Origin: a virus
DNA length: 40,691 nucleotides
Strand: one strand, 5' to 3'
Virus record (IMG/VR): IMGVR_UViG_3300009285_002085
Under the pieces are notes generated by a model that was not told the DNA's origin, searched no databases, and worked only from the letters and a program-made list of their open reading frames with translations. Numbering within the stretch: position 1 is the first letter of the stretch; every line of letters begins with the position of its first letter. Shown here one piece after another: positions 36,401 to 38,185 of this stretch. Made by a program: the position numbers and the translations under genes.

Positions 36401-36441
36401 TTAAAAATAATGCTTGACAAACCATAAAATTGATATATATT
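36401..36441 (+). promoter_or_regulatory. near-consensus sigma70 promoter of the plus-strand cassette: -35 TTGACA at 36414..36419, 16-nt spacer, -10 TATATT at 36436..36441
   Basis: Read directly. The 19-nt core TTAAAAATAATGCTTGACA is shared with the early promoter at 7415..7433. Confidence 0.6.
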
Positions 36442-36503
36442 AAGGCCAACATCGCGGCTGGATTGACCACCAGCTGGAAACCTAAAACGAAAGGAGAAAA
36501 ATC

Positions 36504-37637
36504 ATGAATACCGAAAAAAGAGCGCACCAGGTAGCGGAGAAAATCAATAAAATCGTCGCAGATAAATCCCAGGTTTTGGTCTGGTACCACACGCGGCAGG
36601 ATGCTGTGCAGGCGGAATTGAGGCTCCACCGGGAATGGAAAATCAGCGTCCCCGTGGATGTAATTAATTATCCACGCGACATCAGCGGCCAGAACGGCCA
36701 CCTCTGGGGGGAGATGCGGCGGCTGGAGTGGGAGATTACCCAGGTGTCTCTCGTGTGTCAGCGAGAAATAGATCATGTTATCCGCATCAACGAGCGCACA
36801 AAAACCGGCCCGCCGCGCCGCGCCGAGGCAAAAAACCTCTGGCTGATTGAGGAGGTTGGGAAACAATTTATCACCGATTACCGCGCGGCGACCTCTAAAC
36901 GCAATTTGGCCGCGATCCGGAAAAACATCACCGACCTCCAGGCCCAGCAAAAAGCTCTCCTCCCTAAGCTCCGGGAGTCCAATAGTCTCTACCTCGCTGG
37001 CAAAAAATCGGGGAAAGCGGCGCGTGCGGCGGCAAACGCAGAGGCGTTGAAATCCGGGCGGTTTTGGGAGGCCGATGAGTCCGCCCTGAAGAATTATTTT
37101 CACCCGCCCTTCAACAAAAATTACATCGCCGATGTGTCGGAAAAATGGCGCGCCTGCCTGATCTTGGAGTGCGAATCTGTATCGTACAGGGCTGGGTACA
37201 ACAACGAGTGGCGGCACAAATTGTCCGCGACCGGCGAGGCCTATCTCTGTGGCATTGATGACAACGGCGATGAATGGGGTCATCGCTGCCGGGTGGACAT
37301 TGGCCATGATCAGTACGGCAATGGAGATTTTGAGGCCACCGTCGAGGATGCTATGTCTGAGCTGTTCGAAATTTCGGCCCATGCGCTCTCTCGCTGCGAG
37401 CGCCAGGGCGACCTGCTTTTCTGCCCCGAGCCGATCCCACCTGAGACCGAGCTGCACCCCCAGGAGACATGGACACCGCGCGAATCCCACAATATCGCCA
37501 GCCCCAGCCTCCAGCGCAACGGGCGATATTTCCGCGCGGCCGACGATATCCAGATCACACACACCAGCCACGCGGCGGTTACGCTGCCGGCGGGGGAATA
37601 CAGGCTGTATCCATTGCAGGTCGCGGACGCTGATTAA
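36504..37637 (+). CDS. orphan protein A of the inverted cassette (377 aa), function unknown
   Basis: RBS AAAGGAGAAAAATC before the ATG. The amino-acid composition is balanced and protein-like, and the codon pattern is G-rich at first positions. The C-terminus is GDLLFCPEP...RESHNI...ITHTSHAAVTLPAGEYRLYPLQ. Confidence 0.7.
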   Translation: MNTEKRAHQVAEKINKIVADKSQVLVWYHTRQDAVQAELRLHREWKISVPVDVINYPRDISGQNGHLWGEMRRLEWEITQVSLVCQREIDHVIRINERTKTGPPRRAEAKNLWLIEEVGKQFITDYRAATSKRNLAAIRKNITDLQAQQKALLPKLRESNSLYLAGKKSGKAARAAANAEALKSGRFWEADESALKNYFHPPFNKNYIADVSEKWRACLILECESVSYRAGYNNEWRHKLSATGEAYLCGIDDNGDEWGHRCRVDIGHDQYGNGDFEATVEDAMSELFEISAHALSRCERQGDLLFCPEPIPPETELHPQETWTPRESHNIASPSLQRNGRYFRAADDIQITHTSHAAVTLPAGEYRLYPLQVADAD

Positions 37638-37650
37638 GGGAATTAACAAA

Positions 37651-37710
37651 CCCCTCCCTGTCGCTGGCAGGAGATGCCACCCCGGAGACCAATCCGGGGT
37701 CAGGGAGGGG
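37651..37710. promoter_or_regulatory. nested stem-loop between cassette genes A and B
   Basis: A 10-bp outer stem CCCCTCCCTG/CAGGGAGGGG encloses a 7-bp hairpin CCCCGGA-gaccaa-TCCGGGG. On the minus strand the structure is followed by TTTGTT. Confidence 0.5.
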
Positions 37711-37740
37711 AAAACCACCAGACCATAGGAGGTATAAAAA

Positions 37741-38171
37741 TGGCACGCAAAAGCACCGCCCCGCGAATCGAGGGCAAATCCGCAGAATGGTATCCGTCCG
37801 TCTTCTCCAGCCTCAATGGGGGGCTGGAGTATTGCGCCGACGCTATTCCGATGCTGTATCGGCACACACTGGAACATCTGCGCCGGGAATTTTCTCGCGG
37901 AGAACTGATGTGCATGATCGATGTTTTCAACAGCACGGCGCTTAACCCCGTGCTCGCCGGGCAGCAGCTTGATATCCAGGTCGCCGATGGGATCACACTT
38001 GACTCCCTGGATGCGAAATGGGCGATCGACGGGAATGCCCTCAATCTCAAAATCGCCGGCCTCACAATTTTTGAGGCCGCCTGCCTGGAAATTTGGGCAA
38101 ATGGGTTCTGGTATCGGCAAAACCCAGAGGAGCCGCTGGATTTGGAGGCATGGGCGGGCCAGTTGTTGTAA
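37741..38171 (+). CDS. orphan protein B of the inverted cassette (143 aa), function unknown
   Basis: ATG is preceded by TAGGAGGTATAAAA. The 165-aa longest ORF begins inside the hairpin and lacks an RBS. Confidence 0.65.
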
Positions 38172-38185
38172 TTCCATATAACCCT

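Follow-up and report, generated by a model that had tools for sequence, protein, structure and literature searches.

Phages are known to carry accessory genes as morons, units that have a sigma-70 promoter of their own and are inserted between core genes, and to carry anti-defence genes in clusters such as those of acr-aca, T7 0.3/Ocr, T3 S-adenosylmethionine (SAM) lyase and ArdC. These are the described systems closest to a cassette of two genes, A and B, found in the IMG/VR virus record IMGVR_UViG_3300009285_002085, which was analysed over a stretch of ~40.7 kb (the window) out of a ~44.1-kb phage genome. As a kind of feature, a moron-like accessory cassette is already known. What appears to be new, judging from structure models and database comparisons, are two protein families with confident predicted folds that match nothing described, a partner family with an HExxH motif, a polymorphic family with a common motif at the N-terminus, and an RNA motif without a match in Rfam. 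We tentatively read the whole as an accessory cassette for counter-defence or host takeover early in infection, in which A would be a metal-dependent effector, and give this reading a probability of about 0.4. It is favoured because the family occurs in phages alone and has a promoter of host type, because the genes sit in hot spots and swap partners, and because ArdC, AcrVA2-like and SAM lyase genes are among their neighbours.

The likeness to morons lies in the sigma-70 promoter, in an apparent insertion between core genes, which are RusA and helicase in the window but TerL and portal in its relatives, in presence or absence among related backbones and in a slightly higher G+C (0.58 against ~0.53). 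Unlike a moron, the cassette has no plus-strand terminator closing the unit in the window, it sits in a virulent-looking phage genome where a prophage-expressed fitness factor is not the obvious logic, and it consists of two separable cassettes joined by a conserved RNA element. With the anti-defence clusters it shares a strong host-type promoter, loosely linked small genes that also occur singly, and, at some loci, neighbours of the ArdC-N/MPTase, AcrVA2-like, SAM lyase, ASCH, RadC, DUF3846 and DUF932 types. However, its proteins resemble known Acr, Ard and Ocr proteins in neither sequence nor fold, B is not a helix-turn-helix (HTH) regulator of the Aca type, and A is large, highly conserved and enzyme-like. 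Type II toxin-antitoxin (TA) systems and ImmA-ImmR pairs likewise have two genes, and some B homologues have HTH-like extensions while B2, another partner of A, has an HExxH motif and is accompanied by an Xre HTH gene in one related locus (L021; such handles denote the loci compared). In contrast to those systems, the pairing here is not obligate and the family is almost absent from bacterial genomes; no toxin, antitoxin or M78 model was matched in Pfam, NCBIfam and PADLOC scans.

Over 21 kb, gene calls on the same genome (L006) place A and B alone on the plus strand, and the long open reading frames (ORFs) of the window outside the cassette are on the minus strand, as a preliminary description made from the sequence had stated. 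A diverges from the RusA gene across a 176-nt spacer and is separated from B by 102 nt, while the stop of B, ending at 38171, converges on the helicase stop codon (38186..38188) with the 14-nt gap given earlier. The ribosome-binding sites, AAAGGAG ahead of the ATG of A and AGGAGG ahead of that of B, are of GGAG type. The plus-strand ORF containing B extends over 37674..38171, with an upstream ATG at 37674 that lies inside the conserved RNA structure and is unused by homologues. Given the N-termini of the homologues, the GGAGG ribosome-binding site and the overlap of the RNA element with the upstream ATG, B starts at the ATG at 37740; the preliminary description had A and the end of B right and the start of B one nucleotide off, at 37741.

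A 617-aa ORF runs antisense to both genes and, as a single long ORF on the strand of every other gene, could itself be the real gene, with A and B as artefacts. The substitutions speak otherwise. Between A and seven homologues, differences at plus-frame codon positions 1/2/3 number, for example, 103/67/195 and 86/62/177, and the bias is alike between B and five homologues (25/25/69, for example). What is the third codon position in A and B serves as the first in the antisense ORF; the piling up of substitutions there indicates that selection, purifying in the case of A, acts on A and B and that the antisense ORF is a shadow. This refutes the antisense gene, which the preliminary description had named as a threat to its own account. 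Further points against it are the 149 homologues of A and 89 of B, all of constant length, found in 5.8 billion clustered proteins, the confident models for both proteins, and the antisense ORF itself, which matches nothing in Pfam, PHROGs, NCBIfam or PADLOC and whose counterparts in relatives range from 65 to 802 aa. The chance that it is the true gene is negligible. On either side of the cassette, at 36259..36278 and 38188..38207 in the coding ends of RusA and the helicase, lie the copies of a 20-nt direct repeat that are 75% identical (AAACCCCC...GAGCGC). Considered as an insertion scar, the repeat was judged to be due to chance, though it could be a recombination scar.

The promoter ahead of A, which the preliminary description had pointed out, is present and is the only site in the window that matches the sigma-70 consensus at 11 or more of 12 positions. 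A site this good arises somewhere in 38% of shuffled windows, so the match is not significant alone; what makes it significant is where it lies and that such sites recur ahead of A in other loci. Consensus matches of 11-12/12 are located 78-233 nt upstream of A in six non-redundant loci, against ~0.04 expected. The homologous promoter of L015 is a perfect consensus (TTGACA-16-TATAAT), and 11/12 sites are found in L011, L018/L020, L026 and L028. Between the window and L015 the homology covers both the promoter and the 5' untranslated region of A. The hairpin in this region is kept at -39/-40 in L015 (~4303-4324) and L076 (~3073-3093), with stems that covary via compensatory changes, and its (A)UUGACCA loop is a motif common to the second hairpin of the RNA element between A and B. 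RusA has weak promoter-like sites of its own within the divergent spacer. A palindromic operator was considered for this region and rejected, as there are just short AT-rich inverted repeats.

Downstream of B no plus-strand terminator-like site was found, and T-run hairpins after A occur in L029 and L032 only. The earlier statement that no terminator lies between the cassette and the helicase gene thus stands for the plus strand; on the minus strand, however, the cassette contains hairpins resembling terminators, opposite the beginning of B, and UUUGUUAAUU follows the RNA element on its reverse side (37643..37711, minus strand). From their sequence, these hairpins and the reverse side of the element might form the end of the helicase transcript. 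Transcripts of the cassette would enter the helicase gene, and those of the helicase operon would cross B in antisense before reaching these hairpins and the reverse side of the element. The collision of transcripts that the preliminary description took as certain is a prediction from this layout.

The spacer between A and B holds an element of ~70 nt with a predicted three-way-junction fold, which lies in the leader of B. It is made up of an outer C-rich/G-rich stem, a nearly invariant first hairpin (GGCA-GGAGA-UGCC), a second hairpin with a variable stem and a (U)GACCAA loop (GACCAA in the window), and a following AAAAC. The covariance model (R1) scores the window copy at 88.8 bits and recovers 17 copies among related loci, always on the coding strand: between A and B, before B behind other genes, before A (L004, L014, L115 and L087), and after B. 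In an alignment that had been fitted to the model, both partners change in 16 of the 20 pairs. Paired cells make up 91%, where shuffles give 71.5%, and the covariation score is 0.46 compared with 0.14 in shuffles and 0.06-0.13 in slid controls. No Rfam family reaches its gathering threshold; the best, anti-hemB on the opposite strand, scores 20.5 bits where 49.5 are required. When IMG/VR was scanned twice with DNA patterns, the extra matches obtained were unconfirmed by the covariance model.

Strand specificity and G-U pairs indicate that the element acts as RNA rather than as a DNA site. It may co-regulate A and B, mark the junctions of cassettes, or do both, and the presence of hairpins with UGACCA loops before both genes suggests a joint post-transcriptional control. 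The element is like T4 promoter-stem-loops, integron attC sites, lambda nut/boxB and CsrA-type GGA hairpins in being a conserved stem-loop at the junctions of variable accessory genes, where it can flank A and B on either side; its first hairpin has a GNRA-like GGAGA pentaloop, which holds GGA. It differs from all of these in forming a three-way junction with conserved loops of its own, and no integron-type integrase was seen in the loci examined.

Protein A and its relatives are unnamed throughout and none of the 149 homologues has a Pfam domain; an exhaustive profile search of 1.84 billion representatives yields only 87 clusters for A. Pfam, PHROGs, NCBIfam and PADLOC scans with the single sequences and with every aligned homologue gave no consistent match for A or B beyond scattered coiled-coil noise, profile searches of PDB sequences, made for both proteins and for the C-terminal module of A, gave nothing significant, and a literature search for their sequence motifs returned no paper. 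The earlier remark that neither protein has an assignable motif was well founded. AlphaFold2 models A with a predicted local distance difference test score (pLDDT) of 95.7 and a predicted template modelling score (pTM) of 0.72. Foldseek found nothing credible for this model in PDB (best E 0.04; TM at most 0.16 query-normalised and 0.23 target-normalised) or in BFVD (best E ~1e-3; TM 0.2-0.3; root-mean-square deviation at least 14 Å). YicC, GyrB and Erf recurred as weak matches, most likely reflecting long helices. In these profile and structure searches neither A nor B showed the confident homology to housekeeping phage functions that, by the preliminary description, would have counted against it.

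The predicted fold of A begins with an alpha/beta unit (residues 1-93) and a long helical hairpin (102-184), followed by a C-terminal module of a four-strand beta meander (206-263), two short helices and a small beta-barrel (299-370); a barrel at this end had been suspected before any model was at hand. The N-terminal half is basic (isoelectric point, pI, 9.8) and the C-terminal half acidic (pI 4.8). The C-terminal module also stands alone as short-form proteins of 160-304 aa. Invariant in long and short forms are L248, G302-D303 (within RxGD[LV][LA]F.P), H329, H353, H356 and the C-terminal Asp, and this Asp/His set is probably a metal site, either catalytic or ligand-binding. About half of the A homologues have a Cys-rich, Zn-ribbon-like insert beside the GDLLF strand. 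No informative domain fusion emerged from a profile search with the C-terminal module. Cupins are defined by the signature G(X)5HXH(X)3-4E(X)6G ... G(X)5PXG(X)2H(X)3N in a double-stranded beta-helix. A recalls them in the G(X)5P of 'RQGDLLFCP', which corresponds to cupin motif 2, and in its invariant histidines within a small barrel, and it has a weak profile match to 11S globulin at 'iRQGDVialPaG' (E = 2, not significant). However, A has G(X)5P only, the order and spacing of its motifs depart from the signature, and Foldseek returned no cupin. In L033 (2791-3527), A is reduced to its last 74-80 codons, in frame and 70% identical, and upstream of them an overlapping 184-aa ORF uses another frame; a frameshift, decay of the copy or an error of assembly is the probable cause.

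Protein B is acidic (pI 4.6) and predicted to be all-helical, with a model of pLDDT 93.0 and pTM 0.85; its best Foldseek match, searched against PDB only, has an E of 4. Its homologues too are all unnamed and lack Pfam domains. Scanning 39 of them for HTH domains gave one near-threshold Pfam match (HTH_3, E 0.0018), and two (P0168 and P0186) have N-terminal extensions that read as HTH-like in the alignment; B itself has no HTH match in the library scans. The location of B near TerL or portal elsewhere raised the idea of a small terminase. For the window this was rejected, as a 141-aa gene that overlaps the start of TerL is found there in the place usual for a small terminase, with B 4 kb off, on the other strand.

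A was found in 23 IMG/VR loci and 43 metagenome loci. The 185,579 species genomes of bacteria and archaea contain it on one contig only, from a metagenome-assembled genome, and that contig itself has a phage connector gene. Neither A nor B is present in 50,697 GenBank phage records, nor A in 72,556 plasmids, and megablast and tblastn searches of GenBank phages and plasmids gave no cultured relative of A, B or the proteins with the shared N-terminal motif. Going by these databases, the A and B families are confined to phages, and to uncultivated ones. Among 55 non-redundant A loci, 39 have enough downstream sequence for the partner to be evaluated: in 18, B lies directly downstream on the same strand, in 4, B2 follows A, and 17 have no recurrent partner. 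A stands alone or last in its unit in L022, L024 and L026. An independent search with B added 22 loci, 5 of which have an A-type or C-module protein upstream and 17 none. The association of A with B is far above chance for two rare families but is not obligate, so that the pairing asked about in the preliminary description is conserved in relatives without amounting to an obligate two-component system. Non-obligate pairing argues against strict toxin-antitoxin or two-component logic and fits the loose clustering of accessory and anti-defence islands.

The B2 proteins, ~211 aa long, share the motif EYLHELAH (HExxH) and a conserved segment, SDWFAD, and form an orphan family, as Pfam and PHROGs gave no match; in L021 a 68-aa Xre-type HTH gene follows it. 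Its identification as an ArdC metalloprotease was rejected, the HExxH motif being the only common feature. Upstream of B, three otherwise unrelated types of protein share a ~30-aa N-terminal motif (MKY...IIEAAQ..GSAAKT..GA.KY), and the type found in L046 ends in the short-form C-module of A.

Inversion relative to the neighbouring genes is seen again in L015, where A and B lie among minus-strand genes, and in L024, where A is alone. A and B are co-oriented with their neighbours in L001, L004 and lambda-like relatives, and the inverted context stressed in the preliminary description is not a conserved property. Backbones differ as well, comprising T7-type connector phages, lambda-type phages (gpA terminase, gpW, portal) and 76-96 kb contigs with integrases. 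The backbone genes of the window are not common to the other loci, except for TerL, of which L024 has a 65%-identical version, and RusA, distantly related in L025 and L026. L042, whose helicase is 64% identical, has neither A nor B after the helicase gene and also no detectable RusA, and no close relative with an empty insertion site was found. The cassette is typically sited where the replication module borders on the packaging module, or between gpA terminase and gpW/portal. In the latter gap the cargo includes A, B or B2, radical SAM, methyltransferase-like, DUF488-N3a, ParB_N, 3'-phosphoadenosine-5'-phosphosulfate (PAPS) reductase and HTH genes.

Several neighbours of A are of anti-defence type. 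ArdC-N/MPTase genes lie directly upstream of A in L002 (8666-9553) and L038 (7077-7880), an AcrVA2-like gene starts 2 nt after A in L038 (9139-10137), and a SAM lyase gene is located two genes downstream of the A homologue of L040 (9926-10546). The anti-CRISPR protein AcrVA2 causes cas12a mRNA to be lost (PMC13131331). ASCH genes occur in L004, L038 and L112, and DUF3846, RadC and DUF932 genes beside short-form homologues. The preliminary description had placed the pair among immunity, defence or anti-defence functions. The context fits a conflict or accessory role. Immunity of the lysogenic kind is unlikely, given that sequenced genomes of bacteria essentially lack the family; consistent with what had been noted, no integrase or repressor was matched by Pfam in the 42 window ORFs outside the cassette.

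Under the counter-defence or host-takeover reading, the cassette would be of moron type, horizontally mobile, self-promoted and carried by uncultivated environmental phages. Its near-consensus sigma-70 promoter would be transcribed by the host RNA polymerase, independently of the one-strand programme of the phage, and expression would likely come early in infection. A would be the effector: its basic N-terminal half may hold it on nucleic acid, and its autonomous, acidic C-terminal module may carry a metal-dependent catalytic or ligand-binding centre. B would be a small acidic helical protein translated from the conserved three-way-junction RNA leader. The two proteins would cooperate and yet be separable, each cassette being found also by itself or beside different partners. 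In this account we infer the metal site, the binding to nucleic acid, the early expression and the anti-defence role.

Several observations weigh against this reading. A is strongly conserved, with 37 invariant positions among 47 sequences, which suits an enzyme and is unusual for inhibitors that track fast-evolving host targets. Its putative metal site is deduced from sequence, and the promoter is proposed from a consensus match. In addition, many of the neighbours belong to packaging or DNA metabolism (gpA terminase, portal, RusA, ligase, radical SAM, ParB), and guilt by association is a weak argument in accessory hot spots.

The cassette might instead be a phage exclusion or defence module, or one akin to TA systems, with A as toxic effector and B as its neutraliser or regulator, shielding the infected cell or the phage from competitors. 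An independently promoted two-gene unit would suit such a module, as would the HTH-like extensions of P0168 and P0186, which recall antitoxins or regulators, the HExxH of B2 with the Xre-type HTH of L021, which recalls ImmA/ImmR pairs, the polymorphic proteins with a common N-terminal motif upstream of B, and the HicAB genes near A in L002. The co-occurrence is loose, however, both from the side of A, which can be alone or last, and from that of B, whose loci mostly lack an A-type partner. There is also no match in PADLOC, Pfam or NCBIfam, the window phage has no integrase or repressor, and the family is nearly missing from the species genomes, where prophage defence or TA genes would be expected. 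We regard this explanation as rather unlikely. Less likely again is a housekeeping-type function of a poorly sampled phage group, that is, an accessory of DNA metabolism or packaging concerned with recombination or repair, the handling of DNA ends or help to the terminase. A adjoins RusA and helicase genes in the window and RusA again in L025 and L026, directly follows an NAD-dependent ligase gene in L040 and lies between gpA terminase and gpW/portal in lambda-like relatives; B is often just before gpW/portal or near TerL; and the basic N-terminal half of A suggests binding to DNA or RNA. Yet position and orientation vary, the relative with the 64%-identical helicase has neither gene beside it, L024 with its related TerL has A without B, and the window phage possesses its own likely small terminase gene beside TerL. 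A separate host-type promoter on the opposite strand would be atypical for a core function, and the family is absent from all the GenBank phage records searched.

It is also conceivable that A modifies nucleic acid, acting on phage DNA or RNA with B or B2 as a specificity or accessory subunit. Radical SAM genes neighbour the cassette in five loci and in L081, L110 and L112, PAPS reductase, DUF488-N3a, 2-thiouracil desulfurase, ParB_N and methyltransferase-like neighbours recur, and the invariant His/Asp cluster of A and the Zn-ribbon-like Cys insert of many homologues would be in keeping with an enzyme of this type. On the other hand, A is unlike any known modification enzyme, such neighbours are common cargo of these hot spots anyway, and B also occurs without A; we think this improbable.

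Returning to the counter-defence or host-takeover reading, if it is correct, A would represent a new enzyme fold directed against bacterial immunity, and B and B2 new partner proteins; discoveries of new phage counter-defence proteins have repeatedly revealed new host pathways and yielded tools. A broader proposal, and a rather doubtful one, is that A, the short forms, the proteins with the N-terminal motif, B and B2, together with the UGACCA/three-way-junction leader, constitute an unrecognised modular conflict system of uncultivated phages, in which polymorphic effectors built on a new metal-binding fold are exchanged as cassettes bounded by RNA elements and controlled through a shared RNA motif. 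If so, nothing analogous has been described to the way in which it would counter host defences or serve in competition between phages. Whatever the function, the locus adds two well-folded families without a relative in Pfam, PHROGs or PDB (nor, for A, in BFVD) and an RNA motif supported by covariation that is outside Rfam, and environmental phages appear to exchange accessory genes singly, each gene being a cassette with a conserved structured element at its borders. At 1.8 kb, the cassette is compact enough for direct synthesis.

Table 1. Positions of the cassette, its signals, recurrent related elements and terminase genes
Feature	Locus	Position	Strand	Remarks
Gene A	window	36504..37637	+	377 aa
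Gene B	window	37740..38171	+	143 aa
Sigma-70-type promoter ahead of A	window	36414..36441	+	TTGACA-16-TATATT; consensus 11/12
Hairpin in 5' untranslated region of A	window	36455..36476	+	7-bp stem, loop AUUGACCA, 39 nt before ATG; -13.7 kcal/mol, z -2.7
Three-way-junction RNA, leader of B in A-B spacer	window	37646..37716	+	-46.7 kcal/mol, z -4.1
Terminator-like hairpins antisense to B 5' end	window	37740..37787	-	four overlapping consensus matches
Antisense ORF	window	36357..38210	-	617 aa; shadow ORF, not a gene
Large terminase (TerL)	window	32238..33719		
Likely small terminase gene	window	33685..34110		141 aa; overlaps TerL start
RNA element copy	L001	11344-11414		
RNA element copy	L015	5535-5606		
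RNA element copy	L076	4413-4484		
RNA element copies	L044	3470-3542, 5904-5976		
RNA element copy	L049	5905-5976		
RNA element copy	L048	5149-5223		
RNA element copy	L043	5526-5597		
RNA element copy	L046	1469-1536		
RNA element copy	L053	4806-4878		
RNA element copy	L004	9886-9960		
RNA element copy	L014	9894-9963		
B2 gene	L002	11320-11955		
B2 gene	L011	2550-3233		
B2 gene	L012	3554-4192		
B2 gene	L021	3894-4553		
B2 gene	L033	3541-4176		
Protein with shared N-terminal motif	L043	4294-5520		
Protein with shared N-terminal motif	L044	4874-5899		
Protein with shared N-terminal motif	L046	246-1463		
Protein with shared N-terminal motif	L049	4876-5901		
Protein with shared N-terminal motif	L060	4823-5968		
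Lambda-like accessory hot spot	L018	3935-5926		
Lambda-like accessory hot spot	L020	136-5717		
Lambda-like accessory hot spots	L021, L012, L032, L033, L027			

The ~44.1-kb genome was recovered in three independent groundwater metagenome assemblies with differing start points (44,157, 44,085 and 44,143 bp). By its gene content it looks like a podovirus of virulent type, with a T7-type head-to-tail connector, a GP7-type capsid protein and a tail tubular protein as markers. SbcCD-like nuclease genes and a PAPS reductase gene are among the window genes: at one window end (region 90..4836, minus strand), the PAPS-reductase-like gene (90..941) adjoins SbcC-like (1262..3631) and SbcD-like (3628..4836) genes. 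A 278-aa replication-initiator-like protein (34852..35688, minus strand) has weak Lin1244_N and phrog_2562 matches and a run of DK dipeptide repeats, DKDKDKDKDKDK. One of the 42 ORFs outside the cassette matches the ART-PolyVal domain (ADP-ribosyltransferase of polyvalent proteins; E 2.8e-10); the domain is probably part of a large injected virion protein, for example that of the 1774-aa ORF at 11145..16469. Two GNAT acetyltransferases are also encoded in the window.

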